64,000 nucleotides of DNA from an uncultured Candidatus Saccharibacteria bacterium (GCA_964512925.1 CAZEKH010000004.1:2431-66430), one strand, 5' to 3'. Positions 10,397 through 64,000 are shown, counted from the first letter of the stretch. Translations and numbers: made by a program. The notes: a model not told the origin generated them from the letters alone.

Positions 10397-11704
10397 CTAT
10401 AATCTCGAAATATCCCTAGGATAAAAAATGTCTATGGTCCAGTCCAAAACCACCCGGATTTTTTTGGCCAGACCCGGGATTTTGCTGAGGTAAATGGTGC
10501 GCCACACCCACCAGGCTAGGTGTCCATAAAAAGGCAGACCAAAAATTTCCGCAGCGGCTTTCCATTTGCCTAAAGAGACCAGCTGGCCTTTTTCTTTGTA
10601 AGCAAAGGGCTTAAGTTTTTTGCCCTGTATCAGCCTGGCAATGTTTCTAGCTACCTGTTTCCCTGAGGCTTCCGCAGCCTGGGCGCTTTGCGGCCAGGAG
10701 GTTTTTTCGCACGGGACTTGCGCCATATCTCCGGCGGAAAAAATATTTTCTTTGCTTTCAACTTGTAAAAATTGGTTAACTATCAGCTGGCCTGACGGCG
10801 AAGCTTTTGTCTTGGTAATGAAATTTGTGGAGTTAGGTTTTACTCCCACAGCGGAGATGACTGTTTTGGTGGGTATGGTTTCTCCGGTTTTAAGCCTGAC
10901 ACTTTCAGGAAACTGTTGGGAAATTTCAGTATTGAGTAAAAAAGTAAAGTGTTGTTTTTTTGTAAGCATCTCCCGGGCTTTTACACTGATTTTTTTGTGA
11001 AAGCGGGGCAGGATTCGGCCACTGCGGTGGATGAGAAAAACTTTTGGCTCACTGGGCGAGATTTCCGGAAAATTGTTTAAAAGATCGGAAAAGAATTCTT
11101 CTATTTCCGCGCTTAGCTCAATTCCGGTGGGGCCGGCTCCTACCACTATAAAATTTAGTTCAGCTTTGCGGTCAATGGAATTTTTTGGCAGCGCCGATGC
11201 TCTGCCAAAACAAGCAATGATATGGTTTTTGAGTTTTCTGGCGTCTTCCAGGGTTTTAAGGCCAAAAGTCATCTGGGGTTCAAAATTTTTCCAGTCATTT
11301 TTAGAGCCTAAAGCCAAAAGCAAAAAGTCGTAAGGGATATTTCCCCTGGAAGTTTCTATTTCTTTTTGTTCTTCGTTGACGCTTAAAACTTCGCCAAATA
11401 CAAACTTGATATTGTTTCCCAAAATCTGTCTCAGCGGTTGGATGATGTTTGACTGGTTAACCGAGCCGGTTGCTACCTCGTGAAGCAGGGGAGTAAAGAG
11501 AAAATAGTTTTCTTTGGAGATTAGAGTAATTTCTATTTCATCATTCCTCTCCCTGTTATGGGGGAGGTTAGGTGGGGGTTGAATCTGAGTGTTTACCAAT
11601 CTGCCTCCAAATATCTTTTTTAACTCCAAAGCCGCATACACTCCGGCAAACCCTCCGCCCACAATGACAATTTTTTTCGTTTGATTCATATCTATATTAT
11701 ACAT
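10397..11704 (-). CDS. ndh: type II NADH dehydrogenase (NDH-2) / FAD-dependent pyridine nucleotide-disulfide oxidoreductase. It carries an in-frame ~19-aa insertion derived from a hairpin repeat.
   Basis: KKIVIVGGGFAGVYAALEL (first Rossmann fold), IVVGAGPTGIELSAEIEEF (second) and FTPLLHEVATGS. An extra segment NTQIQPPPNLPHNRERNDE lies between the first dinucleotide fold and ITLISK, exactly where the CCTCTCCC..GGGAGAGG element sits in the DNA. Confidence 0.8.
   Translation of the reverse strand: MYNIDMNQTKKIVIVGGGFAGVYAALELKKIFGGRLVNTQIQPPPNLPHNRERNDEIEITLISKENYFLFTPLLHEVATGSVNQSNIIQPLRQILGNNIKFVFGEVLSVNEEQKEIETSRGNIPYDFLLLALGSKNDWKNFEPQMTFGLKTLEDARKLKNHIIACFGRASALPKNSIDRKAELNFIVVGAGPTGIELSAEIEEFFSDLLNNFPEISPSEPKVFLIHRSGRILPRFHKKISVKAREMLTKKQHFTFLLNTEISQQFPESVRLKTGETIPTKTVISAVGVKPNSTNFITKTKASPSGQLIVNQFLQVESKENIFSAGDMAQVPCEKTSWPQSAQAAEASGKQVARNIARLIQGKKLKPFAYKEKGQLVSLGKWKAAAEIFGLPFYGHLAWWVWRTIYLSKIPGLAKKIRVVLDWTIDIFYPRDISRL
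11546..11581. repeat. hairpin repeat family 1 copy, inside the ndh CDS and in-frame
   Basis: CCTCTCCCtgttatGGGGGAGGTTAGGTGGGGGTTG. Confidence 0.75.
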
Positions 11705-11737
11705 TAAAACCGATTATTTATTTTTTCAGTTCTTTTT

Positions 11738-11770
11738 CCTCCCCTTAAAGTAAGGGGAGGTTAGGAGGGG
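11738..11770. repeat. hairpin repeat family 1 copy, intergenic
   Basis: CCTCCCCttaaagtaaGGGGAGGTTAGGAGGGG. The loop ttaaagtaa is shared with the copy inside recG. Confidence 0.7.
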
Positions 11771-11845
11771 ATATGTTTCAGTAACTATGAATTTCGAATA
11801 TTTTTTAAATAAGTAATGTTATTTTTCAAATGAAAAAGCCGCGGT

Positions 11846-12253
11846 TTACTCGCGGCTGTGGGTAGGCCTTGGAACAGCGTCCAGGCCTTGTTCTAAGATG
11901 AAATTTTTTAGTCCCTCCGGGACGTTTCTGGTTCCTGGCAGCGCCAGAAACCAGAGATGCTGTGGGTACCACTGCGCGGTTACCCACTGCACTTCCGCCC
12001 AAGCCTGGGCAGAGAGGTTTGCGGAAGTTAGGTCTACGACCAGCACTTCCGACCCCTCCAAAGGCCAGCCCGTGCAAAGCGCTTGCCGCGCTTCGTCTCG
12101 GGTGGCAAGTTCCCCGGATATGACGATCCGGGTGAACTCTCCTTCTTTCCTCACAACTTTACGCGACCAAGTTCTGGTCAAGCGTATGTAAAGAGGGCGG
12201 AAAAAGAGAAAAATTACAAAAACTATAATATAATTCATCTTCCTCCACTTCAA
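11846..12253 (-). CDS. hypothetical protein with an N-terminal TM segment and a possible STAS-like fold, in a GC-enriched segment
   Basis: N-terminal hydrophobic NYIIVFVIFLFF, then RIVISGELATRDEARQAL...LVVDLTSANLS. Local GC is clearly above the window average. A minus-strand hairpin plus T-run lies at the 3' end (about 11836-11862). Confidence 0.3.
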   Translation of the reverse strand: MKWRKMNYIIVFVIFLFFRPLYIRLTRTWSRKVVRKEGEFTRIVISGELATRDEARQALCTGWPLEGSEVLVVDLTSANLSAQAWAEVQWVTAQWYPQHLWFLALPGTRNVPEGLKNFILEQGLDAVPRPTHSRE

Positions 12254-12370
12254 AAGACTGATTTATATTATACCACAAATACATATTTTTGTCCAGGAAA
12301 AAATGGCAGTTTTGCCATAGTTTTTTTCTAAACCACCTAAAAAATGATATAATTAAAACATACGCTTTTC

Positions 12371-12410
12371 CCCTTCTTTTTCCCTCCCTTGATGGGAGGG
12401 AGCCAAAGGC
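12371..12410. repeat. hairpin repeat family 1, degenerate copy
   Basis: CCCTCCCttgatGGGAGGGagccaaaggcg. Confidence 0.55.
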
Positions 12411-12457
12411 GTAAGTCTAAATAATATTATAGTATTTATTTTAAAAATCTTGTTTAT

Positions 12458-12727: not shown

Positions 12728-12817
12728 AATGCTTTCTTAGTTTTTTAAACTAAGTTGGAGAAACCAATTAAAACAAGCGCAGCATAGATTAAGTGTGACT
12801 TTTAAATTATGAATTTT

Positions 12818-12848
12818 AAAAAAAACCGCTTTGGGCGGTTTTTTATTA
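12818..12848 (+). terminator. intrinsic terminator
   Basis: AACCGCtttgGGCGGTT followed by TTTTTT. Confidence 0.7.
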
Positions 12849-12867
12849 TCTAAACTCACTAGAGAAA

Positions 12868-13332: not shown

Positions 13333-13697
13333 ATTGAAAAAACCCTAGAAAAATGCTAGGATATAGGCCTTGGGGATGACGGTTTTTGACAGGTCTTTGA
13401 CATCTTTTTATATGCAAGGCGAGCTAGTCTGTAGCCTCGTAAATCCTACGGACATCAACAAATGCTGTTGAAACCTCTTGGAACAAAGTTGTTAAAGCTT
13501 TTGCTTTAGCTGATTTTGCTCCTGTTGCTGCTTAATAAAGTAGCAACACATACCCTTTCCCCAATTCCGGGAAAGACCAGTATGCTTATTTGGAATTTGC
13601 GGTTTTAAGGTTTGATTTGCACTTTAAAACCAAAGGCATTGTAAATCAATTTCAATGAATTTTCGCCAGACTTTGTTCATTGAAATATCAAGTTTGG

Positions 13698-15305
13698 CTA
13701 ACCTTGTGAACAATGGAAAGATTGAGAAGTTCTGGACCCGGGTTTAACTCCCGGCATCTCCACCATATTAGTTTTTGAGGTGTTAACTTGTGTTAATGCC
13801 TCTAAGACAAGCGGTAATTTTGGTGTTCCAAAGCCTGTGAATTTGTCGTATGATAATCCTTTGTTAAAGTAAACGTTCAAAAGTGTTCTTTTCTCAATGA
13901 TTTCAGGGCTGTTCCAGTGATTTAGAGGGTGTTCCAAATAGCCAAAGACCAATTGTAGAGCTTTTAAAAAATCTTGTGTATTATACTGCTGAATTTTACC
14001 CGCCGATTCAATGGCGGTTTTTTGTTTGAGTAAATTTTCTAACTCAATTTCGTAATGGCGAATAAGCGTTTGATTAGAAGTTTCAGAAATTCTTTGGGTT
14101 AGATTGCTAATCTTGGTGTTAAATTCGTTTATTTGTTTCAAATTTGCCTCTTGATTGCTAATTTCGCCATTTTGCCTTTTTTGCCACACATCAAGGAGTA
14201 TAGCTTCGGCTAGCTTTAAAATTTGAGTTTTGGGGGTAAGTTTCGCAAGCAGTATTTCAAAGTCTTTATGGACTTCTGTTTGTCGTAAGGTTTTATTGCG
14301 GTTTGAGCAAAACGGATACTTACACCAGTAGTGGGGGTAAAGAGTGCCGAGTTTGCCTTTATGCCAACTTGCAGTCATTGCTCTATTGCAGTTTGGACAA
14401 AGTAAATAATTCCTTAAAGGAAAATCAGCACTAAGGTCTTGGCGCATTTGCGGTTTAAGTCTAGTTTGTAATCGGGTTTTAACTGCTTGTAAAGTTTCGA
14501 AAGAAATAAACCCTTTATGTTTAGCTTTTCTAAAATCAACATCCCAATTTTTATATTCCAAATAGCCGGCATAAAGCGGATTAATCAAAATAGTTTTGGT
14601 TGCGTCTGCGCTTAAACTTTTCTTTAAGCCCTTAAGTTTATATTGTTCAAGTATAAATTGTCTGACTGCTTCAATGGTGTTAAGTTCGTAATCTCTAAAT
14701 TTTTCTATGGCTTGTTTGTAAATTACAGAAAATACCCCGTCAGGAGCTAATATATTGCCCTCGTGATCTTTTCTTTGGAATTTTAAGCCAGGTGGAGCGT
14801 GAAATGCCCAGTAGCCAAGTTCTAGCCTAGCTTTTTGTTTTTGGATAACTTGCCTGCGATTTTGTTCTCGTTCTAACTGTGAGGTGGCGGCAATAATATT
14901 TTCTACAAAAATTCCTTCAGGGGTTTCTTCAAACTTAAAATTTAAACACTCCAACTTAGCCAATCTTGAACCAAATTCTTTTTTTAGCTTTAAATGAACT
15001 TCTATATCTCTTGCAAATCTTTTTATGTCGTCAAATATAACAACGAACTTTTCTGAACTATTTTTGTCTAAAAACTTTAATACTTCTTTCATTGCAGGGC
15101 GTTCAAATAATCCGCCTGAAACACCTTCGTCTCGGAATATTTTTATAACTTCTAAGCCTTTAGCTAGGGCGTAAGCAATACACCTGTGCTCTTGGCTTTC
15201 TAAACCGCTACCCTCGGAAACTTGCTGGCCAGAAGATACACGGCAATAAATTAAGGCTTTTTGGTATTCATTTAGGTTTGTGTTGTTTTTCATATGTGTT
15301 ATCAA
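13698..15305 (-). CDS. large serine recombinase (phage-integrase type). TTG start as called by the ORF track.
   Basis: Resolvase catalytic domain ALIYCRVSSGQQ...VVIFDDIKRFARD, a recombinase domain, the zinc ribbon CPNCNRAMTASWHKGKLGTLYPHYWCKYPFC, and a C-terminal coiled coil. The last ~20 codons read through the tRNA-like fragment. Confidence 0.85.
   Translation of the reverse strand: MITHMKNNTNLNEYQKALIYCRVSSGQQVSEGSGLESQEHRCIAYALAKGLEVIKIFRDEGVSGGLFERPAMKEVLKFLDKNSSEKFVVIFDDIKRFARDIEVHLKLKKEFGSRLAKLECLNFKFEETPEGIFVENIIAATSQLEREQNRRQVIQKQKARLELGYWAFHAPPGLKFQRKDHEGNILAPDGVFSVIYKQAIEKFRDYELNTIEAVRQFILEQYKLKGLKKSLSADATKTILINPLYAGYLEYKNWDVDFRKAKHKGFISFETLQAVKTRLQTRLKPQMRQDLSADFPLRNYLLCPNCNRAMTASWHKGKLGTLYPHYWCKYPFCSNRNKTLRQTEVHKDFEILLAKLTPKTQILKLAEAILLDVWQKRQNGEISNQEANLKQINEFNTKISNLTQRISETSNQTLIRHYEIELENLLKQKTAIESAGKIQQYNTQDFLKALQLVFGYLEHPLNHWNSPEIIEKRTLLNVYFNKGLSYDKFTGFGTPKLPLVLEALTQVNTSKTNMVEMPGVKPGSRTSQSFHCSQG
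13738..13765 (+). other. tRNA-like 3' fragment (T-arm, acceptor 3' strand, discriminator, CCA). No matching 5' half is present, so this is a candidate att-site remnant.
   Basis: CCGGG-TTTAACT-CCCGG (5-bp T-stem, 7-nt T-loop), then CATCTCC, A, CCA. No complementary GGAGATG acceptor 5' strand occurs within 100 nt upstream. It lies under the 3' end of the serine recombinase ORF. Confidence 0.4.
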
Positions 15306-17582: not shown

Positions 17583-17699
17583 AACTGGATTATAACAGCG
17601 AAATTTGCTATATTTTAAGTATAACTAAATAGCCTAAACCTGAGCAATCGGGCATGGCACAAAAAAATCTCAAGACGATACTGAACCCCGCGTTCAGCT

Positions 17700-17772
17700 A
17701 TTCGTCTTGAGTCATACCCGAAAGGGTATGGGGTGTAAAAGCCCGGCTGACACGGGGCTTTGTGTTTTTATA
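17700..17772. repeat. structured ~65-nt repeat, copy 1
   Basis: GAGTCATACCCGAAAGGGTATGGGGTGTAAAAGCCCGGCTGACACGGGGCTTTGTGTTT. It is preceded by a 10-bp inverted repeat CTCAAGACGA...TCGTCTTGAG. The related copy is at about 20331-20405. Confidence 0.6.
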
Positions 17773-19512: not shown

Positions 19513-19625
19513 TTGTTTAAATTTTAATAGCCCTTAATCGGGCTATTTTTACTACATATTTAGGACGCCAGAAATTCTAAAAATTTCCTCATAAAGTAAG
19601 TTCCACCCATTTTTGAGAATCTCCA

Positions 19626-20000
19626 CCACTGCTTCGCCAAGGCTACGAAGTGCAAGCACACCGATAATGCTCGCCATTTGAAAAAGTTAAAACATTAGTA
19701 GCAACGAAGCAGTGCCCTTCGAAGCTTTAAGCGTAGTAGGGCTGTATCTTCTTCGCCAAGGCTACGAAGTGCAAGCACTGCTTATAGATAGGTTTGTTTA
19801 AAAAGTAAGCTTGTAAATTTACGATGCGAAGAAGTGTCCTGCGTAGCTTTAGCGAAGCAGGGCTGTATCTGCTTCTCTTTCACCTTCGCCAAGGCGACGA
19901 AGTGCAAGCACACCGATAATGCTAGCCATTTGAAAAAGTTAAAACATTAGTAGCAACGAAGCAGTGCCCTTCGAAGCTTTAAGCGAAGTAGGGCCATAAG
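19626..20000. repeat. non-coding array of ~110-bp repeats: two full copies plus partial internal copies
   Basis: CTTCGCCAAGGCTACGAAGTGCAAGCACACCGATAATGCTCGCCATTTGAAAAAGTTAAAACATTAGTAGCAACGAAGCAGTGCCCTTCGAAGCTTTAAGCG(T/A)AGTAGGGC occurs at about 19633-19745 and about 19886-19998. Partial copies lie between them (CTTCGCCAAGGCTACGAAGTGCAAGCACTGC..., GCGAAGCAGGGCTGTATCTGCTTC). Confidence 0.75.
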
Positions 20001-20058
20001 TTTATAAAATGCCCAACTATAAGGTTGGCTTTTTATTTTGGAGTGATATAATTCTTAT

Positions 20059-27913: not shown

Positions 27914-27934
27914 AAAATTAAATTCAAGTTAGAA

Positions 27935-27984
27935 CCCCTCTCTCCAAAAGTTGGAGAGAGGTTGGGAGAGAGGTTTAAGTTAGG
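27935..27984. repeat. hairpin repeat family 1 copy; left inverted repeat flanking the DUF559 gene
   Basis: CCCCTCTCTCCaaaagttGGAGAGAGGTTGGGAGAGAGGTTTAAGTTAGG. Its reverse complement closely matches the element at about 28316-28359. Confidence 0.7.
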
Positions 27985-28316
27985 CTTTTAGCTATGGTTT
28001 CAAGCACTGTATCTAAATTTTTGTCTATATCATTATTCCAAAATCGTAATACTTTGTAACCTTCAGATTTTAAAAAAGCATTTCTTTGAGAGTCATAGAG
28101 TTTTGTGATAGCTTTTGAATGGTGCCCGCCATCTAACTCAATAATTAGCTTTTTTTCTTGACAACAAAAATCAACAATAAATTTACCTAAGGGAATTTGT
28201 CTTTTAAATTTGAAATTCCAAACCCTTTTACCTCTTAAATACTTCCAGAGTTTAGTTTCCCATGGGGTTTGTTGTTTTCTTAGCTCTTTACTTCTTGGGG
28301 TAAGAAATGCTTTCAC
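27975..28316 (-). CDS. DUF559 endonuclease-domain protein (Vsr/very-short-patch-repair-like fold), GTG start
   Basis: WETKLWKYLRGKRVWNFKFKRQIPLGKFIVDFCCQEKKLIIELDGGHHSKAITKLYDSQRNAFLKSEGYKVLRFWNNDI is the canonical DUF559 pattern (VDF....klvIElDG..H.....D..R...L...G..vlRf.n..v). Confidence 0.75.
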   Translation of the reverse strand: MKAFLTPRSKELRKQQTPWETKLWKYLRGKRVWNFKFKRQIPLGKFIVDFCCQEKKLIIELDGGHHSKAITKLYDSQRNAFLKSEGYKVLRFWNNDIDKNLDTVLETIAKSLT

Positions 28317-28359
28317 TTTAACCTCTCCCTAACCCTCTCCAAGAATTGGAGAGGGAATC
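28316..28359. repeat. hairpin repeat family 1 copy; right inverted repeat flanking the DUF559 gene
   Basis: TTAACCTCTCCCTAACCCTCTCCaagaattGGAGAGGGAATC. This is an inverted copy of the 27935-27984 element. Confidence 0.7.
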
Positions 28360-41454: not shown

Positions 41455-42363
41455 ATGGACTCACAATATATTAAAACATTGTTATCACGATACGGATTAA
41501 AACCTAATTTCACTTACGGGCAGAATTTTTTGATTGACGAGGTCGTGCTGGAAGATATGGTGGACGCAAGCGGGATAAGTAAAGAAGATTTGGTTTTGGA
41601 GATCGGGCCGGGTATCGGCAACTTGACCCGCAAACTATGCGAAAGAGCCGGCTTTGTTTTGTCCGTGGAAAAAGATCCCAAGTTTCAGCCCATTCTTTAC
41701 AATATTAAAAAAGATTTCCGGGACAATTTTAGATATGAGATATTTGACGCTTTGGAGTTTGACTACCAAGATTTTTTGGAAAACTATACAAGGCACGAAA
41801 TATCCGAATTAAAAACGAACGACACCAATTCGGGACATTCGGGTGAAGTTCGTAAATTAGTGTCGCCCTACAAAGTTGTCGCCAACATCCCTTACTACAT
41901 CACCGGGAAAATTTTGGAAATGTTTATGACCTCAAAAAATAAACCTTCCAGCATCACGGTTCTCACCCAAAAAGAAGTTGCAGAAAGAGTGGTCGCAAAG
42001 GCCGGGGGGATGTCGCTTCTTTCCATCTCGGTTCAACTTTACGGCGAGCCGAAAATCATTTCCATTGTTCCTGCCAGAAGTTTTTATCCGGCGCCTAAAG
42101 TTGATAGCGCGGTTTTGAAAATAGATCTTTTTGAAAAGCCTAAATACGAAATTGAAGATGAGAAGAAATTTTTCAAAGTCCTAAAAGCTTGCTTCTCTGG
42201 AAAACGAAAACAGATCCACAACACCCTGTCCGGAAATTTCGGACTGCCTAAAGAAAAAGTTTTAGAAGTTTTATCCGAACTTTCCATTGACCCGAAAATT
42301 CGTCCCCAGGAACTGGAGATAGAGCAGTGGGTGGAGTTGGTTAAAAAAATCAGTAGTAATTAG
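41455..42363 (+). CDS. rsmA: 16S rRNA (adenine1518/1519-N6)-dimethyltransferase RsmA/KsgA
   Basis: YGQNFLIDEVVLEDMVD...VLEIGPGIGNLT is the SAM motif. VVANIPYYIT is the NLPY-type motif. Confidence 0.85.
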   Translation: MDSQYIKTLLSRYGLKPNFTYGQNFLIDEVVLEDMVDASGISKEDLVLEIGPGIGNLTRKLCERAGFVLSVEKDPKFQPILYNIKKDFRDNFRYEIFDALEFDYQDFLENYTRHEISELKTNDTNSGHSGEVRKLVSPYKVVANIPYYITGKILEMFMTSKNKPSSITVLTQKEVAERVVAKAGGMSLLSISVQLYGEPKIISIVPARSFYPAPKVDSAVLKIDLFEKPKYEIEDEKKFFKVLKACFSGKRKQIHNTLSGNFGLPKEKVLEVLSELSIDPKIRPQELEIEQWVELVKKISSN

Positions 42364-45847: not shown

Positions 45848-45887
45848 ATCTTATAGTAAATAAATAGGAAAAATCAAGTCTTTTTTA

Positions 45888-45923
45888 CCCCGCCCCGATG
45901 TACATCGGGGCGGGGTTTTGTTA
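45888..45923 (+). terminator. intrinsic terminator
   Basis: CCCCGCCCCGATGtaCATCGGGGCGGGGttttgtt. The CCCCGATGTNCATCGGGG core is shared with repeat family 2. Confidence 0.8.
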
Positions 45924-52617: not shown

Positions 52618-52687
52618 AAGCCCAAATTTTAAATTAAAAATGTATTTAAGTAATTCAATTTAAAAATATTCGCTGTGTAGGGCACAG

Positions 52688-52790
52688 TCGTTCGACCTCT
52701 CCCGCTCCGATGTCCATCGGGGCACCCTCCCCACCCGCCTGCAGCGATATGTGCAGCATTTCGGGCAGGAGCCTGGGGAGGGAAAAACTG
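52688..52790. repeat. hairpin repeat family 2 copy
   Basis: GTTCGACCTCTCCCGCTCCGATGTCCATCGGGGCACCCTCCCCACCCGCC...GCCTGGGGAGGG. It overlaps the annotated N-terminal extension of the next ORF. Confidence 0.7.
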
Positions 52791-52807
52791 TATTAAGTTT
52801 TTATCCT

Positions 52808-53494
52808 ATGAAGTTTGATATGCAAAATAAAAACAAATCAACCGGCAAAACAACCCAAAGCTTTTTACGCATCGCTGAGATCAAATCCGATACCGCAGTG
52901 ATGGATGACGGGACTTTGAGGGCAATTTTGTCTGTCTCGTCCACCAATTTTGATTTAAAAAGCCAAGACGAGCAAAATGGGATAATATTTAACTTCCAAA
53001 GGTTTTTAAATTCTTTGGATTTTCCCGTTCAAATTTTGATGCAAAGCCGAAAGATGGATGTCGGGGCTTACTTGGAAAAGCTCAAGCGGATTTCGGAAAA
53101 GCAGACTAACGAACTTTTGCGAGTGCAGACCCAGGAATATGTGGAGTTTATCGCCAGGCTGGTGGAAAATGCCAGCATTATGAACAAAAATTTTTATGTT
53201 GTTGTGCCTTTGGGCGAAAGCGTCAATCCGAATGCAGCAGGTTTTTTCAGTAAAATATTTGGAAACGGCAAAGCCAAAGAAGCCAAAGAACGGATTGAGA
53301 ATTTTGAAAAAGCTTCGGAAAAATTGAATTTGCGTGTCAGCGCGGTTTTGTCCAACCTATCCAGCGTGGGGGTAAGATCAGCCAGGCTGAAAACCGAAGA
53401 GATCATCCAACTTTACTACAACTCTTATAATTTTGATGCCGCTCCAAACATAGACGCCACTAAAATCCCGGAAATGGATATTGTTAATACTTAA
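52808..53494 (+). CDS. VirB4/TrbE/CagE-family N-terminal domain, separate ORF. The start is taken at MKFDMQ because the ORF-track extension reads through a repeat.
   Basis: RAILSVSSTNFDLKSQDEQNGIIFNFQRFLNSLDFPVQILMQSRK resembles the VirB4 N-domain. It ends with TAA in the same frame as the ATPase ORF, which restarts 27 nt downstream. Confidence 0.5.
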   Translation: MKFDMQNKNKSTGKTTQSFLRIAEIKSDTAVMDDGTLRAILSVSSTNFDLKSQDEQNGIIFNFQRFLNSLDFPVQILMQSRKMDVGAYLEKLKRISEKQTNELLRVQTQEYVEFIARLVENASIMNKNFYVVVPLGESVNPNAAGFFSKIFGNGKAKEAKERIENFEKASEKLNLRVSAVLSNLSSVGVRSARLKTEEIIQLYYNSYNFDAAPNIDATKIPEMDIVNT

Positions 53495-53521
53495 ATAAAA
53501 ATATAAAACTACTTCATCACA

Positions 53522-55369
53522 ATGAGTTTATTTGGAAAACACAACCAGGCGGAGATTGACGAAAAAAAAGAAAAGATAAAAGAGCTGGAGTCTGAACGCA
53601 GCGCGTCAAAAAAATTGGACGATGTGGAAAAAACCTACCGCGAGGGACTTACCACTTTGCGGGATTTGATCGCGCCCGCGGCTTTAAAGTTTTCCGGATC
53701 GTATTTTGAACTGAATGGCAAATTCGGCAGAAGTTTTTTTGTGCTGGCTTACCCGAGATTTTTATCCACTAACTGGCTGTCTTTTGTCATTAACGCGGAA
53801 GGGGCTTTGGATGTTTCAATGTTTATTTACCCCATTGATTCGGCAACGATTTTAAAAAAGCTTAAATCCAAAGTCGGGGAAATAGGTTCTCAGATGTCTA
53901 TGAATCAGGAAAAGGGTTCGGTCCGCGACCCAATGCTGGAGACTGCGTACAAAGATGTGGAAGGGCTTCGCGACCAGCTGATGCAGGGAACGGAAAAATA
54001 TTTCCGTTTTGCCTTATATTTTACGATTTATGCGGACGATCTAAAAGAGCTGGATAAAAATTCCGCCACTTTAGAGAGCTCTTTAGGCGCCAAGTTGGTG
54101 GTAACAAAGCGCGCGGTTCTGCAGACTCAGGACGGTCTGAACTCCACTTTGCCTCTGGGTATGGATCTTTTGGATGTTGGAAACAATATGAATACCAGCC
54201 CGCTCTCTACCTGTTTTCCTTTTGTTTCTTCCGATCTGACGACTAATGACGGGATTTTATACGGTATCAACCGGCACAATAACAGTCTGATTTTGTTTGA
54301 CCGTTTTGCAATGGAAAATGCCAATAGCGTGATTTTCGCCAAATCAGGCGCAGGAAAATCCTACGCTGTAAAGCTGGAAGTTTTGCGTTCTCTGATGATG
54401 GGCACTGAAGTTATCATCATAGATCCTGAAAACGAATATAAGCATTTAGCCGAGGCCGTGGGCGGGACTTACTTAAATGTCTCTTTAAACAGCGAATCGC
54501 GGATTAACCCTTTTGATTTGCCAGTGGCTATAGAAGGAGAGCAAAATAGCGAAGTTTTGAGAAGCGCGGTGGTAAATCTTTTAGGTATGTTCAATCTGAT
54601 GCTGGGCAAGTTAAATCCCACTGAAGAAGCGATAATGGACAAGGCGATTTGGCAAACATATGCGAAAAAAGACATTACTCCGGATTTGGCGGACTTTAGA
54701 GGCGCGGAAATGCCGACAATGAACGATCTGGTAGAAATTTTGTCCGGCACTGTGGGAGCGGAAAGTTTGGTTCAGCGCTTAGGCAAATATACGGAAGGGA
54801 CTTTTGCCGGACTGTTTAACCAGCCGACCAATGTGGTTTTAAACAACCAGCTCGTGGTTTTTTCCATTCGCGACCTGGAAGAGGAGCTAAGGCCCATAGC
54901 GATGTATATTGTGCTGAATTATATTTGGAATGTTGTCAGAAGCGAACTCAAGCGTAGGATATTGGCAGTGGACGAAGCCTGGATTTTGATGCAGCACGAA
55001 GACAGCGCCAGGTTTTTATTTGGCATAGCAAAAAGAGGCCGTAAATATTATCTGGGACTTTCAACCATCACTCAGGATGTGGTGGATTTTATGTCCAGCC
55101 CTTACGGCAAGCCGATCGTTACCAATTCTTCCATCCAGCTTTTGCTCAAACAGTCGCCGGCGGCTATCAATGTCATAGCAGAAACTTTTTATCTGACAGA
55201 GGGTGAAAAATATCTGCTTTTAGAAAGCGAAGTCGGGGAAGGCATATTTTTTGCCGGCCTTAAACACGCGGCTATCAAAATTTATGCCTCCTATGTGGAA
55301 GATCAAATCATTACTACTGACCCGAAACAGCTTTTAGAAATTCAGGAAAGCCAGGATAAGCTGAACTAA
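53522..55369 (+). CDS. virB4: VirB4-family conjugation/secretion ATPase, ATPase domain
   Basis: Walker A AKSGAGKSYAV, Walker B RILAVDEAWILM (DEAW is the VirB4 hallmark), GLSTITQDV. Length and motif spacing match the VirB4 C-terminal domain. Confidence 0.8.
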   Translation: MSLFGKHNQAEIDEKKEKIKELESERSASKKLDDVEKTYREGLTTLRDLIAPAALKFSGSYFELNGKFGRSFFVLAYPRFLSTNWLSFVINAEGALDVSMFIYPIDSATILKKLKSKVGEIGSQMSMNQEKGSVRDPMLETAYKDVEGLRDQLMQGTEKYFRFALYFTIYADDLKELDKNSATLESSLGAKLVVTKRAVLQTQDGLNSTLPLGMDLLDVGNNMNTSPLSTCFPFVSSDLTTNDGILYGINRHNNSLILFDRFAMENANSVIFAKSGAGKSYAVKLEVLRSLMMGTEVIIIDPENEYKHLAEAVGGTYLNVSLNSESRINPFDLPVAIEGEQNSEVLRSAVVNLLGMFNLMLGKLNPTEEAIMDKAIWQTYAKKDITPDLADFRGAEMPTMNDLVEILSGTVGAESLVQRLGKYTEGTFAGLFNQPTNVVLNNQLVVFSIRDLEEELRPIAMYIVLNYIWNVVRSELKRRILAVDEAWILMQHEDSARFLFGIAKRGRKYYLGLSTITQDVVDFMSSPYGKPIVTNSSIQLLLKQSPAAINVIAETFYLTEGEKYLLLESEVGEGIFFAGLKHAAIKIYASYVEDQIITTDPKQLLEIQESQDKLN

Positions 55370-55390
55370 TTTTTAAAATTATTAGATTAC

Positions 55391-55472
55391 ACCCGCATCC
55401 TTTCCCCCTCTCCCGTTAGACGGGGGAGCCTGCCCGACTTGGTCATTCAGGCGGGGGTAGGGGTGGGGGTGA
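55391..55472. repeat. composite hairpin repeat related to family 1
   Basis: CCCCCTCTCCCGttagaCGGGGGAGcctgcccgacttggtcattcaggcGGGGGTAGGGGTGGGGGTG. Confidence 0.6.
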
Positions 55473-55555
55473 ATTTTTTTAAAATTCAGTGAAAATTGTC
55501 CCGATGTCAATCGGGATCCCGCTTCGCGGGAAAAATTGGTAATTGAAATTTTTTT

Positions 55556-58426: not shown

Positions 58427-58457
58427 AAATTATAAATTATTATTTTTTATTAATTAC

Positions 58458-58517
58458 GATCGTTTGACCCCTCCCGCCCCGATGTCCATCGGGGCACGCT
58501 CCCCAAGCCTGGGGAGG
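58458..58517. repeat. hairpin repeat family 2 copy
   Basis: GTTTGACCCCTCCCGCCCCGATGTCCATCGGGGCACGCTCCCCAAGCCTGGGGAGG. Confidence 0.75.
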
Positions 58518-58522
58518 AAAAA

Positions 58523-58984
58523 ATGAAATCTATGGAAAATTCTAAATTTTACAAAATATTGCTGGGACTCGGAATACTTATTTTGATTTTAGTCAGCGTG
58601 TATTTTGCATTGCCCGGTCCTGACCAAAAAAGCTCGTTGAATGGGAAGATAAATATTCCTGCGCAAAACGGACAAATCCAAACCAATGATTTTCATAAAA
58701 CTCAGGTGGAGCAAGTGGCTGAAACTTCGGTTTTAGCCAGAACTGCCGGGTTTGAAATTGTGAATTACGCGGTTGATAATTCTTTTACTATAACGCTTTC
58801 TCAAAAGCCGTTGGACAAGTCTCGCGATGAGGCTGAGCAAAAACTTTTGCAGATTTTAGGCGTTATCCCGACTGAGGCTTGTAAATTGAAAGTTGCCGTC
58901 TTTGTCCCTTTTTCCGTGGATGAGAAAGCTGCTGGTATAGACTATGGCCTAAGCTTTTGTCCAAAAGGCCTGCCGATTGATTAA
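58523..58984 (+). CDS. hypothetical single-TM or secreted protein (153 aa)
   Basis: TM segment ILLGLGILILILVSVYFALP. No motif. Confidence 0.3.
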   Translation: MKSMENSKFYKILLGLGILILILVSVYFALPGPDQKSSLNGKINIPAQNGQIQTNDFHKTQVEQVAETSVLARTAGFEIVNYAVDNSFTITLSQKPLDKSRDEAEQKLLQILGVIPTEACKLKVAVFVPFSVDEKAAGIDYGLSFCPKGLPID

Positions 58985-59020
58985 AGTGTGTTTATCTAAT
59001 TCAAAGATTGGTACTGTTTA

Positions 59021-59062
59021 CCCCCTCTCCCATATGGGAGAGGGCAGGGGTGAGGTTAGGGC
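59021..59062. repeat. hairpin repeat family 1 copy
   Basis: CCCTCTCCCatatGGGAGAGGGCAGGGGTGAGGTTAGGG. Confidence 0.75.
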
Positions 59063-62352: not shown

Positions 62353-62416
62353 TATATAAAAGGGACGGGGTGAGGTTGCGGAATATTTTTTTAAAATAAA
62401 ACTATGTGGATTACCA

Positions 62417-62470
62417 GCGTTCGACCTCTCCCGCCCTTTCGGGCACCCTCCCCAAGCCTGGGGAGGGAAG
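62417..62470. repeat. hairpin repeat family 2 copy
   Basis: GTTCGACCTCTCCCGCCCtttcGGGCACCCTCCCCAAGCCTGGGGAGGG. Confidence 0.75.
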
Positions 62471-62478
62471 TATTGGAT

Positions 62479-64000
62479 TTACTCAAAATGCACCGCCTGG
62501 CCTTTTAGTTTTTGTTGGAGCAGGGGGTAGTTTTTTAGTTCCAGATCATCTTCCAAAAGTTTTCTGGCCTCTTGCCTAGCTTTGGGGATCAGGGCTATGT
62601 AGTCGGGGTTGAAGTATTTGTAATCAAAACCTGACTGAGTTTCGCCAAACAGCTTGCCAAAACCCCTTTGCTTTAAGTCTATTTCAGCCAGCTCAAAGCC
62701 GTTTCGGGTTTTGGTAAAGGAAGTGAGGCGGTCTAAGCTTTCGTTTTGAACAATAACTCTCCCAGGACCCCTCTTTGAAAAAGAGGGGGTTTCTGCAATT
62801 TCGCCCCCTCTTAAAGTAAGAGGGGGTTTGGGGGTGATACTGTTTTCTGTTGTAAACAAAAAGCAGTAGCTTTGGTGTTCGGCACGGCCGACGCGGCCGC
62901 GAAACTGGTGGAGCTGGGACAGACCGAAACGTTCTGCTCCTTCTATGACCATCACTGAAGCGTTTGGCACATCTACCCCAACTTCCACAACTGACGTTGA
63001 AACTAGGATTTGGATTTTGTTGTCTAAAAAATCCTGCATAACTTGTTCTTTTTCTTTGCTCTTCATTTTTCCGTGGAGGAGACCAATCAGAACTCCCCCC
63101 GCCTTCGCCAAGGCTTCGGCGGGCAAGGCCTGCCCACTCCCCTCAAGGGAGGGGAAAGAGGCGGTAAAGGGGGATGAAGGGGGTTTTTGAGAAAGCTCAG
63201 CAAATATTTTTTGCAGATTTAAAACTTCTGTTTTGGCGGACTTTATGTCAGACGTTTCGTTTTCCTCTATGAGCGGGGTTATGACAAAAGCCTGCCTGCC
63301 TTTTTGTATTTGTTCTTTAATAAACTCATAAGCCTTGTTTCTGTTTTCGTCTGTAACCAGTTTGGTTATGATAGGTTTTCTTTCAGCCGGCTTTTGTCTT
63401 ATCTGCGAAATATCTAACTCTCCAACAAAAGCCAGTTTAAGCGTGCGCGGGATCGGCGTTGCGCTCATAGAAAGTAAATGAGGCACTTTATGAGTCACTG
63501 AGTCGTTATCCGCGTGGCTCCGCTTCTTAGTCGGATCCGCATGAAATCCGCGCAGCAAAGTTCCTCTTTGCTCTACCCCGAAGCGGTGTTGTTCGTCGAT
63601 GATCACGAGGGCTAATTTTTTAAAATTGACCTTTTCTTCCAAAAGCGCGTGCGTGCCGATGTACAGCCCTGGCATACCATCCTGAAGTTCTTGTAGTAAT
63701 TCTTTTTTAGTTTTTTCTTTACGATTGATGAGTGAGTAGGTTTGAGTATAAAGTATGCTGCGGCAGTTGAAAAAAGGTTTTTTTTCCACCAAATATTTCA
63801 AAGCGCTTTCGTGATGCTGTTTGGCTAAAACTTCAGTTGGGCATAACAAAGCTACTTGTAAGCCTTTTTGTATCGCCTGAAGTGCGGCGATGAAAGAAAC
63901 CAAAGTTTTTCCCGACCCAACATCTCCTTCCAAAAGCCTGTTCATAGGAGATGATTTTTCCATATCCTGCAGTATGTCCCAGGCCGCTTTTTTTTGTTCT
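62479..64000 (-). CDS. recG: ATP-dependent DNA helicase RecG, 5'-partial (continues beyond the window end). It carries two in-frame hairpin-repeat insertions.
   Basis: Motif I MNRLLEGDVGSGKT, motif II LVIIDEQHRFG, and LHGKMKSKEK...ILVSTSVVEVGVDVP...FRGRVGR (helicase C-domain). The minus-strand frame stays open to nt 64000 (EQKKAAWDILQDMEKSSP...). The extra segments PPSSPFTASFPSLEGSGQALPAEALAKAGG and PPLTLRGGEIAETPSFSKRGPGRV coincide with repeat copies at about 63095-63188 and about 62767-62838. Confidence 0.88.
   Translation of the reverse strand, partial: EQKKAAWDILQDMEKSSPMNRLLEGDVGSGKTLVSFIAALQAIQKGLQVALLCPTEVLAKQHHESALKYLVEKKPFFNCRSILYTQTYSLINRKEKTKKELLQELQDGMPGLYIGTHALLEEKVNFKKLALVIIDEQHRFGVEQRGTLLRGFHADPTKKRSHADNDSVTHKVPHLLSMSATPIPRTLKLAFVGELDISQIRQKPAERKPIITKLVTDENRNKAYEFIKEQIQKGRQAFVITPLIEENETSDIKSAKTEVLNLQKIFAELSQKPPSSPFTASFPSLEGSGQALPAEALAKAGGVLIGLLHGKMKSKEKEQVMQDFLDNKIQILVSTSVVEVGVDVPNASVMVIEGAERFGLSQLHQFRGRVGRAEHQSYCFLFTTENSITPKPPLTLRGGEIAETPSFSKRGPGRVIVQNESLDRLTSFTKTRNGFELAEIDLKQRGFGKLFGETQSGFDYKYFNPDYIALIPKARQEARKLLEDDLELKNYPLLQQKLKGQAVHFE
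62767..62838. repeat. hairpin repeat family 1 double copy, inside the recG CDS and in-frame
   Basis: CCCCTCTTtgaaaaAGAGGGGG...CCCCCTCTTAAAGTAAGAGGGGGTTTGGGGGTGAT. The loop TTAAAGTAA is identical to the intergenic copy at 11738-11770. Confidence 0.7.
63095..63188. repeat. GC-rich hairpin repeat inside the recG CDS and in-frame
   Basis: CCGCCTTCGCCAAGGCTTCGGCGGGCAAGGCCTGCCCACTCCCCTCaagGGAGGGGAAAGAGGCGGTAAAGGGGGATGAAGGGGG. It shares the 12-mer CTTCGCCAAGGC with the 110-bp repeat at 19.6-20.0 kb. Confidence 0.6.

Follow-up and report, generated by a model that had tools for sequence, protein, structure and literature searches.

BoxC repeats were described in E. coli in the 1990s, the intrastrand-triplex class of BoxC, PIT and TM repeats is said to be documented by Hoyne and Maher in 2000, and REP elements together with the RAYT transposase were reportedly treated by Nunvar in 2010. 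In the former class a pyrimidine block is accompanied by its Watson-Crick purine partner and by a mirroring, purine-rich third block, as a consequence of which a single strand can form a triplexed hairpin; its third strand would be of the purine motif, with G.GC, A.AT and T.AT as expected triads. Triplex folding of the TM consensus was demonstrated by CD and NMR (Holder et al. 2015, PMC4666352), whereby a stable triplex in vivo was not found in E. coli; the TM repeats of this organism were reported to be always intergenic, with neither an associated gene nor a link to mobile elements (PMC4666352). Rickettsia palindromic elements (RPE; Ogata et al. 2000, summarised in PMC10969869) measure ~100-150 bp and form Rickettsia-specific families. 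REP/REPIN elements and the RAYT transposase were dealt with by Bertels and Rainey 2011 (PMC3116915) and Ton-Hoang 2012 (PMC3333891). As to nucleases, the homing endonuclease I-Bth0305I (PDB 3r3p), which possesses a Vsr-like fold, was grouped with DUF559 (PMC3424549), and the annotation 'DUF559 domain-containing protein' was found 14-fold enriched among predicted invertible segments (PMC9881135).

Within the source genome, the present analysis covers one 64-kb window (the whole stretch of DNA that was analysed), in which one DUF559 gene is located. Taken as a whole, the explanation that we consider quite probable is that triplex-class repeats are mobile or recombinogenic, are tolerated in-frame in protein loops and have a DUF559 nuclease as partner.

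Architecture and class of the repeat

The window contains about 13 copies of an element 35-45 nt long (Table 1), whose blocks are ordered as pyrimidine arm, loop, purine arm, a spacer of ~3 nt (often TTA) and the mirrored purine arm. Ten loci carry the full three-block motif, as compared to 0.15 expected and at most one in 60 shuffles, and hairpins with 7-nt C/T arms occur at 13 loci, as compared to 0.68 +/- 0.81 (maximum 4) in 100 dinucleotide shuffles. More exactly, the tail, previously noted as GTTAGG(N)GGGG-type, mirrors the purine arm: among 90 asymmetric arms, resemblance to the own arm was greater as mirror than as direct repeat in 40 cases versus 12, and the mirror score of 0.815 exceeded those of all 200 tail permutations (maximum 0.737). 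The copy at 11734-11778 possesses a perfect mirror (GGGGAGG TTA GGAGGGG) and brackets, together with that at 12363-12405, a high-GC ORFan; its 9-nt loop is identical to that of the recG copy at 62804, as had been claimed before, and the two copies share 74% identity over 50 nt. The copy at 59019-59062 reads CCCTCTCCC ATAT GGGAGAGGG CAG GGGTGAGG and matches, as copy 59023, the published TMECO consensus CCCTCNCCC N3-6 GGGNGAGGG N3 GGGNGAGGG. Judged by sequence, the window elements are members of the BoxC/PIT/TM intrastrand-triplex class, which as a sequence class is not new. A terminator-like hairpin with an arm composition similar to that of the repeat is located at 827-850.

All repeat sequences given in the earlier note are present where it had placed them and the copies it listed are real, including the five intergenic ones; '28316' marks the start codon of the neighbouring ORF, which the element abuts. 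That list omitted the copy at 55386-55475 as well as long forms (52688, 58460, 62441) characterised by an additional internal hairpin; the one within the 62441 copy (CGCCCTTTCGGGCA) matches the internal hairpin of external DUF559 flanks.

Table 1. Features of the window. CM, covariance model, trained exclusively on external DUF559 flanks
Feature	Position	Strand	Details
NDH-2, type II NADH dehydrogenase gene (ndh), intact	10397..11704	-	PDB matches 9mqy, 4nwz, E ~1e-40
TM (BoxC-type) copy within ndh	11542..11584	+	coding (-) strand reads QPPPNLPHNRERN
TM copy, intergenic	11734..11778	+	loop TTAAAGTAA; CM E 0.17
TM-like copy, intergenic, inverted orientation	12363..12405	-	tail degenerate; CM E 0.33
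TM copy, downstream flank of DUF559 gene	27934..27978	+	adjoins stop codon, tail towards gene; CM E=6.9e-5
DUF559 (Vsr-like PD-(D/E)XK) nuclease gene	27975..28316	-	113 aa; Pfam PF04480 E=9.4e-40; PDB 3HRL E=2.4e-23
TM copy, upstream flank of DUF559 gene	28315..28358	-	adjoins start codon; CM E=2.1e-8
Second, unrelated repeat family, in-frame within ksgA/rsmA	41796..41885	-	read as RHEISELKTNDTNSGHSGEVRKLVSP
Long-form TM-related copy	52688..52790	-	C-rich tail, internal GCCCCGATGTCCATCGGGGC-type hairpin, main hairpin, extra nested sequence
Long-form copy	55386..55475	+	hairpin, second hairpin, G-rich tail GGTAGGGGTGGGGGTGA
Long-form copy	58460..58520	-	immediately upstream of ORF 58523-58984
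TM copy, canonical, intergenic	59019..59062	+	CM E=4.6e-9; nhmmer E=2.9e-7
Long-form copy	62441..62470	-	between recG and convergent upstream ORF
recG	62479..64000	-	C-terminal 506 codons inside window; PDB 1gm5 E=5e-83
RecG insertion iii, inverted doublet of two TM copies	62749..62844	- and +	read as TPKPPLTLRGGEIAETPSFSKRGPGRV
RecG insertion ii, composite	63095..63188		TM-like hairpin 63138-63155 and CGCCTTCGCCAAGGCTTCGGCG-type hairpins; read as PPSSPFTASFPSLEGSGQALPAEALAKAGG
RecG insertion i	~63490..63546	-	~17 aa, FHADPTKKRSHADNDSV; GC-rich; not the TM repeat

Repeats flanking DUF559 genes

The DUF559 gene of the window lies between inverted TM copies, whereby 5 nt separate the tail of the upstream flank (GGGAGAGG) from the GTG start. 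Apparently, a Shine-Dalgarno-like purine tract is contributed by the tail on the upstream side and the TAA stop by that on the downstream side. Among metagenomic DUF559 loci, a flank hairpin was found upstream in 60 of 76, downstream in 54 of 77 and on either side in 72 of 80 (the window's own gene included), as compared to 4 of 1249 control windows. Tails-inward flanks outnumber others by 38 to 3 upstream and by 32 to 2 downstream. The two flanks of one gene resemble each other more than they resemble flanks from elsewhere (0 of 2000 permutations), a similarity that may in part be due to each genome having its own repeat variants instead of to a unit. Flanking repeats likewise occur at DUF559 genes of cultured E. 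coli (ycjD), N. gonorrhoeae, where the flanked gene is that of the PDB 3HRL family, Deinococcus and Synechocystis; on the Deinococcus and Synechocystis plasmids the tails point outwards, hence the architecture is not uniform.

Based on this association, the DUF559 nuclease is suggested as the putative partner protein of these repeats. By analogy with REP-RAYT, this protein may be an enzyme that nicks or mobilises in trans; alternatively, the gene may be of the homing type and live in the repeat. A dimeric enzyme that cuts an uninterrupted repeat doublet would be compatible with the palindromic, tails-inward flanks, this being a predicted specificity; such 'empty' tails-inward doublets were encountered anecdotally only (L089, L090).

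In-frame copies within genes

The ndh copy, a full-length CM match (E=3.3e-4) with the blocks CCTCTCC/GGGGAGG/GGTGGGG, coincides with an indel of +19 aa that is unique among 118 sequences, as the spacing from GxGxxG to FLFTPLL amounts to 46 aa here only and to 22-30 aa in 117 homologues. Residues ~33-56, which correspond to the insertion, are coil of low pLDDT in an AF2 model of mean pLDDT 88.6, and the gaps of the PDB alignments fall exactly at this position. The full RecG comprises 784 aa as compared to ~685 typically, and its PDB alignments are likewise gapped exactly at the inserts. Insertion iii consists of two halves (62749-62792, minus strand; 62801-62844, plus strand) with outward tails and an MFE of -41.7 kcal/mol, for which the CM gave weak matches (E 0.04 and 0.4); insertion ii is a degenerate composite, and the recG copies altogether score weakly (E 0.04-0.7). 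Other copies of insertion i were searched for and none was found. Segments of pLDDT<50 cover residues 665-694 (iii), 549-579 (ii) and 432-446 (i), such that low-confidence AF2 segments match the positions of all four inserts in NDH-2 and RecG.

The earlier note had proposed in-frame copies in ndh and at two sites of recG, genes it termed essential, and the peptides it quoted are indeed found in the ORFs. The ndh copy, given as 11546-11581, is in-frame with a core of 11542-11584; of the two recG sites, both real repeat sites, that at 62749-62844 is an inverted doublet instead of a single copy, and the third insertion had been missed. Orthologue alignment, its proposed check, identified the inserts as lineage-specific and at DNA level coincident with the repeats in both genes, the frames are intact with all invariant alignment columns kept to the C-termini, and the extra segments map to low-confidence loops of the AlphaFold models, where a surface loop had been anticipated.

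Further intragenic copies are given by ksgA, an intact ORF whose insert belongs to the second, unrelated repeat family, is 86% identical over 51 nt to 3132-3182 and adds ~21 aa relative to B. subtilis KsgA (6ifs), and by the PPDK_N gene of relative L082, in which the CM matched two in-frame copies.

Considering that Pro/Gly-rich linkers are common and that the recG copies score weakly, the extra segments might be taken for ordinary low-complexity linkers resembling the repeats by coincidence, or for ancestral sequence lost elsewhere. This idea is largely refuted: the ndh insert as well as the RecG inserts of the other genomes L083 and L165 are recognised by a model derived from unrelated loci (E 3e-4 to 1e-7), the shared loop joins an intergenic to an intragenic copy, a peptide linker gives no reason for a hairpin with mirror tail, and bacteria as a rule have the short state. 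Assembly artefacts, i.e. repeat-induced chimeras, come to mind as the contig is metagenomic and assemblers are known to be misled by repeats; this is negligibly probable, as recG with all three inserts is 100% identical in an independent Logan assembly of a sequencing run (L081), comparable in-frame inserts are found in numerous independent assemblies (JGI, ENA, NCBI), and frame retention is not expected from a chimera.

It is also very improbable, if slightly less so than coincidental linkers, that the intragenic copies are excised at the mRNA level or skipped by ribosomal bypassing, for which the T4 gene 60 gap and, in Magnusiomyces mitochondria, the GC-rich 'byp' elements may serve as models and which would render the frame irrelevant. 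Against the AT-rich genome background the inserts stand out as GC-rich, stable hairpins (MFE -25 to -111 kcal/mol), a structure type used in bypassing, but all those examined as DNA (window; RecG/PPDK in L082, L083, L165 and L167) are stop-free and a multiple of three in length. Moreover, in a sample biased to intact ORFs, 50 of 50 expanded RecG homologues are continuous ORFs and only a handful of 120 RecG sequences are short, where two thirds would be expected to be broken without frame constraint.

Insertion, tolerance and the RecG hotspot

According to the explanation preferred here, the repeats of this Patescibacteria genome and its relatives would be small, non-autonomous mobile or recombinogenic DNA, dispersed between genes as singlets and inverted doublets, some of which landed within coding sequence. 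As the arms are homopyrimidine or homopurine, stop codons are impossible there and can be encoded by the loops and the TTA spacer only; the elements possess on average 4.3 of 6 open frames, as compared to 3.2 of 6 for random 42-mers. Inserts with a length divisible by three, an open frame and a position in a surface loop would be tolerated and probably translated as disordered loops rich in Pro/Ser and Gly/Glu/Arg, with all other intragenic insertions presumably purged by selection.

In RecG, the site that follows helicase motif VI constitutes a hotspot. The linker measures 37 aa here, whereas 71 of 74 loci from diverse bacteria have 4-9 aa; among the 120 closest homologues the site is expanded in 50 and short in 70. 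Proteins of 83-85% identity show empty versus differently filled states, inserts differ even within a pair of 95% identity, and at DNA level empty (18 nt), +45 nt (canonical TM) and +39 nt (GTAG-type palindrome) states were found. Hotspot copies from elsewhere match the CM (L083, 1.3e-7 and 2.8e-3; L165, 1.2e-6). The loop between motif VI and the TRG motif would represent a tolerant site with fast turnover.

Different repeat families at one RecG site fit tolerance or site fragility as well as they fit transposition. Instead of element-specific transposition, repair at fragile or broken sites could have patched in repeats, either by template switching or by gene conversion from other copies, including repeats into repeats; the hotspot would then be an anciently occupied or break-prone site, repeatedly remodelled, and DUF559 would at most break DNA. 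This reading, which departs from the preferred explanation in the insertion step only, is possible though rather unlikely. It accommodates that unrelated palindromes (TM, GTAG-type and CGCCTTCGCCAAGGC-type hairpins) share the RecG site in close relatives, that nested or composite inserts occur (201 nt in L082; RecG insertion ii; a TM of the L082 PPDK gene with an insert in its loop), that TM repeats were tied in the literature to local instability and small hairpin-preserving deletions, and that a target-site duplication was not seen. Neither such a duplication nor an exact insertion boundary was resolvable, because the nearest empty-site relatives are just 55-85% identical. Against repair, the ndh singleton resides at a site empty in 117 of 117 homologues, so that a pre-existing occupied site is not required, and the matched inverted flanks of DUF559 genes resemble the ends of a unit.

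Comparison with described systems

The Rickettsia likeness suggested by the earlier note holds for behaviour, as in both cases palindromes are found in-frame in conserved genes, adding a peptide where the fold allows, next to intergenic copies. It does not hold for the family: the window elements are 35-45 nt long (doublets ~95 nt), belong to the BoxC/PIT/TM class with its mirror-repeat third block and are found across phyla, whereas RPE families are Rickettsia-specific and longer.

The DUF559-repeat layout resembles REP/REPIN-RAYT, with the partner activity being putative. Both have short GC-rich palindromes, which occur singly or as inverted doublets, a protein gene that is present once and lies between two inverted copies, and flanks which co-vary with the genome's own repeat variant. 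Here, however, the flanked gene encodes a Vsr-like PD-(D/E)XK nuclease (~110 aa) and not a Y1/HUH transposase, a GTAG/CGTC tag is lacking, and a triplex-forming third block and intragenic copies are present. With Vsr-like homing endonucleases DUF559 has in common the small nuclease, the fold clade and a gene within a specific DNA context; unlike there, no intron or intein context is given and the putative target is a dispersed repeat.

Yeast mitochondrial GC clusters, the double-hairpin elements of Allomyces mtDNA and cyanobacterial small dispersed repeats (SDR) are GC-rich hairpin mini-elements of AT-richer genomes, which occasionally reside in-frame within protein genes; their sequence families and hosts differ from those of the window repeats. 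Neither a mirror-repeat block nor a DUF559 partner is known for them.

Closest are the BoxC/PIT/TM repeats themselves, with which the window elements share the three-block architecture, nearly identical sequence, the second loop TTA (type A), singlets and inverted doublets, scattered multi-copy occurrence and local sequence variability. The window variants are richer in A/T and their first loops are longer (up to 9 nt). In E. coli the repeats are reported to be always intergenic, whereas here, in a Patescibacteria host, they reside in-frame within NDH-2 and RecG (and PPDK in a relative) and bracket a DUF559 nuclease gene. Two features hence appear new, namely intragenic, frame-preserving TM copies in Patescibacteria and TM repeats flanking DUF559 genes.

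Architecture and class of the repeats

Each repeat element consists, in this order, of an arm built from C and T only, a loop of 4-9 nt, a complementary arm of G and A, a spacer of some 3 nt that is frequently TTA, and a G-rich tail. All sequences quoted in an earlier note on this DNA were found in the window, the G+C content of which is 40%, and the copies were classified as short-form and long-form, the latter possessing an extra small hairpin between main hairpin and tail. Hairpins with a 7-nt pyrimidine arm (perfect or with one mismatch) were identified at 13 window loci, as compared to 0.68 +/- 0.81 (max 4) expected from 100 dinucleotide-preserving shuffles. A search for three blocks of 7 nt each with at most one mismatch, i.e., pyrimidine, Watson-Crick purine and third block (G.G, A.A, T.A), yielded 10 window loci versus 0.15 (max 1) in 60 shuffles, eight of these being window repeat copies and two residing within the tmRNA. 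As claimed before, the intergenic copy 11738 and the recG copy 62804 have the 9-nt loop TTAAAGTAA in common; between these two copies stem differences are compensated and the tails are altered in step.

In asymmetric copies the tail was identified to be the reverse of the purine arm and not its direct repeat, whereby A is mirrored as A or T. Among 90 asymmetric arms from external and window copies the mirror fitted better than the direct repeat in 40 and worse in 12, and the tail-to-own-arm mirror score of 0.815 exceeded all of 200 tail permutations among elements (max 0.737). By its primary structure the third block is hence antiparallel-mirror to the purine block, which is the class II purine-motif pattern. 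For the isolated strand of the E. coli consensus, CD and NMR documented a stable class II purine-motif triplex, and the NMR data argue against a quadruplex (Holder et al. 2015, PMC4666352). A G-quadruplex formed by purine arm and tail was considered for the window copies and is disfavoured, as their mirrored G-tract lengths in asymmetric copies and the NMR data for the E. coli consensus favour a triplex. A reading of the repeats as terminators was dropped, as a T-run accompanies only the hairpin at 827-850 and none of the other repeat hairpins.

The consensus reported in the same work is 5'-CCCTCNCCC N3-6 GGGNGAGGG N3 GGGNGAGGG with TTA or CCG as second loop, and copy 59023 matches it. The element was first named BoxC element of E. 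coli, then 'potential intrastrand triplex' (PIT) and later G/C-rich 'triplex motif' (TM or TMECO). The window also holds A/T-richer TM variants such as CCTCCCCTTAAAGTAAGGGGAGGTTAGGAGGGG, and the first loops of some window copies (7-9 nt) are longer than the ITxF database allows for (1-6 nt). Judged by sequence, the window repeats are members of the known BoxC/TM class and not a new sequence class. Rfam holds no family for them, as found in a gathering-threshold scan of the whole window and an E-value scan of the DUF559 unit, a nuclease gene between inverted TM copies.

Several further features relate to the long-form copies. In the copy at 58460-58525 the purine arm TGGGGAGG is located 6 nt before the ATG of the downstream ORF, i.e., in Shine-Dalgarno position. 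A terminator-like perfect 13-bp palindrome (ACCCCGCCCCGATGTACATCGGGGCGGGGT) followed by TTTT is located after the gene ending at 45847, and in its core it shares 96% identity with the internal hairpin that long-form copies possess (58473-58495). Finally, a cluster of PrgI-family and VirB4/TraG-like genes (type IV secretion/conjugation-like) lies between long-form copies and is syntenic in two loci of other genomes, L082 and L083.

Repeat copies and associated features in the window
Feature	Position	Details
Hairpin with T-run	827-850	
Second-family copy, intergenic	3123-3226	104 nt
Second-family copy, intergenic	3410-3513	104 nt
NDH-2 gene (ndh)	10397-11704 (-)	
Short-form copy	11542-11584	in ndh, encodes QPPPNLPHNRERN; model match E 3.3e-4; mirror tail (copy 11546) GGGGGAGG-TTA-GGTGGGGG
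Short-form copy	11734-11778	mirror tail (copy 11738) GGGGAGG-TTA-GGAGGGG
135-aa ORF	11846-12253 (-)	between inverted TM copies 11734 and 12405
Short-form copy, reverse	12363-12405	
tmRNA	13372-13765	124.7 bits
LOOT RNA	17631-17744	63.1 bits, Rfam RF03000
Repeat block	19623-20006	CTTCGCCAAGGCTACGAAGTGCAAGCAC three times
smpB	27479-27913	adjoins DUF559 unit
Short-form copy	27934-27978	
DUF559 (PF04480) gene	27975-28316 (-)	between inverted copies 27934 and 28358
Short-form copy, reverse	28315-28358	mirror tail (copy 28333) TGGAGAGGG-TTA-GGGAGAGGT
ksgA/rsmA	41455-42363	
Second-family copy in ksgA	about 41796-41885	RHEISELKTNDTNSGHSGEVRKLVSP
Palindrome	45887-45916	
PrgI/VirB4/TraG-like cluster	52168-55369	
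Long-form copy	52688	
Long-form copy	55386-55475	
Long-form copy	58460	
ORF after long-form copy	58523-58984	
Short-form copy	59019-59062	model match E 4.6e-9
Long-form copy	62441	
Short-form copy, reverse	62749-62792	
Short-form copy	62801-62844	mirror tail (copy 62804) GAGGGGG-TTT-GGGGGTG
Short-form copy	around 63138	
RecG insert i	63490-63546	FHADPTKKRSHADNDSV
RecG insert ii		PPSSPFTASFPSLEGSGQALPAEALAKAGG
RecG insert iii		TPKPPLTLRGGEIAETPSFSKRGPGRV; between helicase motif VI (HQSYCFLF) and TRG region

Frame-preserving insertions in NDH-2 and RecG

The ORFs of NDH-2 and RecG are intact despite their in-frame copies and keep every invariant alignment column; the closest relatives of both proteins derive from Patescibacteria/CPR metagenome bins. 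NDH-2 was aligned end-to-end with 22 homologues, and segment GGRLVNTQIQPPPNLPHNRERNDE is absent from all 22. The spacing from GxGxxG to FLFTPLL amounts to 46 aa only in the window protein and to 22-30 aa otherwise (118 homologues), and the PDB alignments to 9mqy and 4nwz are interrupted at the insert position. In the AlphaFold model the insert coincides with a low-confidence coil (residues 33-56) between helix 19-32 and strand 57-63. Pro/Gly-rich extras were also observed in other CPR NDH-2 homologues, namely SPGEAEGKSPAAPTTGSGNN in a different loop of P0047 and the N-terminal LQPPLTPPSKGGG of P0114, with P0010 also being named in the alignment, which suggests that the phenomenon may reach beyond the window genome.

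The window RecG comprises 784 aa as compared to about 685 aa typically, and three extra segments (inserts i, ii and iii) were identified relative to T. maritima RecG (1gm5) and most relatives. AlphaFold predicts a confident fold, in which the low-confidence coils 432-446, 549-579 and 665-694 coincide with the inserts, and an independent Logan assembly contains an identical recG, inserts included. At the DNA level insert iii comprises an inverted doublet, the two hairpins of which are separated by a 13-nt spacer and bordered by a C-rich tail in front and a G-rich tail behind; the doublet folds as a single long hairpin (-41.7 kcal/mol). In insert ii a TM-like hairpin is combined with other small hairpins into a degenerate composite, and insert i is GC-rich with repeated GCGGA motifs, no further copy of it being found among the sequences examined. 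Peptides predicted across inserts include PPPNLPHNRERN and PPLTLRGGE. All inserts examined at the DNA level, i.e., those of the window and the RecG and PPDK copies of relatives, are multiples of three and stop-free. As outgroup, RecG loci 34-44% identical from diverse bacteria were used for the linker length and not for close comparison; among the matches listed, 71 of 74 possess a site iii linker of 4-9 aa, all in frame.

The intragenic copies are hence derived, frame-preserving insertions in loops, and both the lineage-specificity and the loop location put forward in the earlier note were borne out, the former by the NDH-2 spacing and the short RecG linker of most relatives, the latter by the coincidence of inserts and predicted coil.

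A RecG loop as insertion hotspot

Of the 120 closest homologues of RecG, 50 are expanded at site iii, nine at site i and five at site ii. All 50 homologues expanded at site iii are continuous ORFs, the sample being biased to intact ORFs, and many of their inserts read like the canonical repeat in translation (e.g., LPLPLGEGQGEGV, PSPIHGEGQGERL and SPSPNPSPQGRG). Proteins being 83-85% identical differ in possessing the short or the expanded state, and one pair being 95% identical carries different inserts. At the DNA level, site iii is empty in L166 (18 nt), extended by 45 nt containing CTCCCTCTCCCTCTGGGAGAGGGCCAGGGTGAGGGTG in L165, and extended by 39 nt in L167 (2313-2369, within the RecG gene of P0147), which contain a perfect 29-nt GTAG-type palindrome, GTAGGGGCAGGTTTTAAACCTGCCCCTAC. 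This palindrome translates as PVGAGFKPAPT, is REP-like and unrelated to the TM repeat. An inverted doublet like that of the window was identified in L083 and a 201-nt composite in L082. As to a possible MITE character, which would involve terminal inverted repeats, a target-site duplication and an autonomous parent IS, the RecG TM doublets have inverted ends, and no duplication could be made out when filled and empty sites were compared, the proteins being 83-85% identical. One RecG loop is an insertion hotspot with rapid turnover. As to how copies get in, transposition fits no better than patching by repair from a template, at a site that is fragile or already holds a repeat, as unrelated palindromes occupy the same site and nested composite inserts exist. 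A transposase-bearing parent element was not found in the window.

The phenomenon involves a second repeat family, characterized by the motif GCGACACTAATTTACGAA...ATTAGTGTC. An in-frame copy in ksgA accounts for about 21 extra aa as compared to B. subtilis KsgA, and two intergenic copies being 93% identical flank rpmI between infC and rplT. Considering this and the states of RecG site iii in relatives, in-frame insertion is general in the clade and involves more than one repeat family.

Other insertions and repeats were observed as well. Two RecG homologues (P0168 and P0239) carry an insertion of about 150 aa at site i with PF13366 (GxxExxY, PD-(D/E)XK-type), i.e., a whole small nuclease domain. 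A stretch of 29 nt from the repeat block at 19623-20006 is identical in L166 (372-400), another CPR genome, and a hairpin related to this block recurs in RecG insert ii, where it reads AEALAKA, as well as in the inserts that P0122 and P0208 carry at the hotspot.

Association with DUF559 genes

The gene located between two inverted window copies belongs to DUF559 (E=9.4e-40, 135.3 bits versus a cutoff of 20.6), and its product has a homologue of solved structure in N. gonorrhoeae, the 'endonuclease-like protein' 3HRL (E=2.4e-23); it is hence a predicted Vsr-like nuclease of the DUF559 family. Both flanking copies have their tails on the gene side, directly adjoining the start codon and the stop codon, respectively. 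In 80 metagenomic loci with DUF559 relatives 43-61% identical to the window protein, flank hairpins (perfect, at least 6 bp, all-pyrimidine 5' arm, within 110 nt) were searched for. Such hairpins were identified in 60/76 assessable upstream flanks, in 54/77 downstream flanks and on at least one side in 72/80 loci, as compared to 4/1249 control windows of the same loci. Their orientation is specific, the G-rich tail of upstream hairpins being gene-side in 38 and far-side in 3 cases, and the C-rich tail of downstream hairpins being gene-side in 32 versus 2. The two flanks of one gene are far more alike than flanks across loci (0/2000 permutations), and no locus examined holds a second DUF559 copy.

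A covariance model built solely from 52 external DUF559 flanks matched, next to both window DUF559 flanks (E 2e-8 and 7e-5), the ndh copy and, more weakly, the recG copies (E 0.04-0.7). In other genomes it matched the RecG hotspot copies of L083 (E 1.3e-7 and 2.8e-3) and L165 (E 1.2e-6), three copies in L082, of which two lie in-frame in a PPDK_N gene (giving SPTSPNPSSGRRGIN and SPSPHPSRPSFAKATADKQGRGIN) and one is intergenic, and two copies in a Chloroflexi contig, matches being few in the 1.48 Mb of external loci searched. The model outperformed a simple sequence HMM, which finds copies with weak E-values due to the variable loop lengths.

The association extends to cultured organisms. In E. 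coli K-12 a degenerate TM copy forms the 3' end of ycjD (b1289, annotated DUF559) and extends across its stop codon, so that the protein terminates with SPSP; this copy is followed by a partial duplicate of the gene's last ~45 nt (fabI-ycjD region, L173 5200-5430), and a canonical TMECO is located about 190 nt downstream (covariance model E 1e-8). At the megablast level, the 131-nt region downstream of ycjD is present in a median of 4 copies per genome of E. coli. Three strong TM copies lie within 1.1 kb of the N. gonorrhoeae DUF559 gene, and the plasmid-borne DUF559 genes of Deinococcus aetherius and Synechocystis B12 have strong copies on both sides, here tails-outward. TM repeats are hence matched flanks of DUF559 genes, and a functional link between nuclease and repeats is likely, in which the repeats may be mobilised by the nuclease or may just serve as its homing sites.

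Two observations concern related layouts. Tails-inward doublets with 15-17 nt between tails, found in the upstream flank of L089 and the downstream flank of L090/L092, resemble a DUF559 unit from which the gene is missing and may represent unoccupied homing sites. In the window, a 135-aa ORF in an island of 55-62% G+C is enclosed by TM copies in the same tails-inward layout; it is an ORFan, for which neither a Pfam match nor, among 5.8 billion proteins, a homologue was found, and may be captured foreign DNA or not a gene.

Proposed mechanism and implications

The suggested model assumes that the repeats spread as DNA, either as singlets or as inverted doublets. Homopyrimidine and homopurine arms are unable to hold stop codons; across a copy a mean of 4.3 of six frames is open, as compared to 3.2 for random window 42-mers. 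Copies with a length being a multiple of three would survive in tolerant loops as disordered peptides rich in Pro/Ser and Gly/Glu/Arg. The single-copy DUF559 gene with its inverted flanks parallels the REP-RAYT arrangement, and a homing-type gene centred in a palindromic doublet would likewise be compatible with the tails-inward layout, with the upstream tail supplying a GGAGG-like tract and the downstream tail a TAA stop. A wider proposal, which we regard as possible and on balance doubtful, holds that TM repeats are the cognate DNA of the DUF559 (YcjD/NGO0050-type, Vsr-like) family, the two together forming a selfish system of the REP-RAYT or homing type that ranges from E. coli to Patescibacteria and in which the nuclease acts on the hairpin or triplex and drives repeat spread and turnover, reaching protein-coding genes in small AT-rich CPR genomes.

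If the latter proposal were true, repeats in CPR genes would be a recurrent source of new surface loops. The window repeats represent, after Rickettsia, the second clear example of proteins containing palindromic repeats, in a different phylum and from a different, far more widespread repeat class. The repeatedly remodelled RecG loop informs on how proteins gain loops, and for CPR genome annotation it matters that such inserts can resemble errors. To our knowledge, neither an origin nor a partner protein has been assigned to BoxC/PIT/TM repeats since the 1990s. The orientation-specific DUF559 association provides a candidate protein partner for this long-unexplained family, testable in E. coli (ycjD) and N. 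gonorrhoeae, for the latter with crystal structure 3HRL.

Comparison with known systems

Holder et al. (PMC4666352) reported 23 TM copies in K-12, five as inverted pairs, and presence in more than 260 genomes; sequence variability was found to be raised around TM sites, a stable triplex was not detected in vivo, and no association with transposons, phages or plasmids was identified, the flanking genes having no common function. The words ycjD, DUF559 and endonuclease are absent from that report. DUF559 was grouped with Vsr and the homing endonuclease 3r3p (PMC3424549), and 'DUF559 domain-containing protein' was reported as 14-fold enriched among predicted programmed-inversion targets (PMC9881135), which inverted TM flanks would explain. 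The accessible text of the open-access literature mentioning DUF559 yielded no link to repeats, and the open-access literature nothing on palindromic or in-frame repeats in Patescibacteria/CPR; earlier descriptions elsewhere are possible in both cases. Small repeats located in-frame within genes have been described before, among them the RPE of Rickettsia and ERIC (PMC10969869). The element class and palindromes in proteins as a general phenomenon are hence already known, whereas BoxC/TM repeats inside Patescibacteria genes, the recurrent RecG hotspot and the DUF559 association look new.

The K-12 motif was described as 'always located intergenically' (PMC4666352), in contrast to the copies inside ndh and recG and, in related genomes, inside recG and PPDK_N; intergenic location is a described property of BoxC/TM and not part of its definition. 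The parallel to Rickettsia palindromic elements drawn in the earlier note stands in that conserved ORFs receive in-frame inserts at positions tolerated by the structure, but not for length and host, as RPEs are Rickettsia families of about 100-150 bp, whereas the window core comprises 35-45 nt in Patescibacteria. Translational bypass elements are inserts unconstrained in length and stop codons, unlike the inserts described here, which are multiples of three and stop-free in a sample biased to intact ORFs. With REP/REPIN-RAYT systems the repeats share the occurrence as singlets and inverted doublets (recG of the window and L083) and the flanking of a single-copy gene by two inverted copies; however, the flanked gene is PF04480 DUF559 and not a Y1 (HUH) transposase, and the TM copies are devoid of the GTAG tag of the GTAG/CGTC type.
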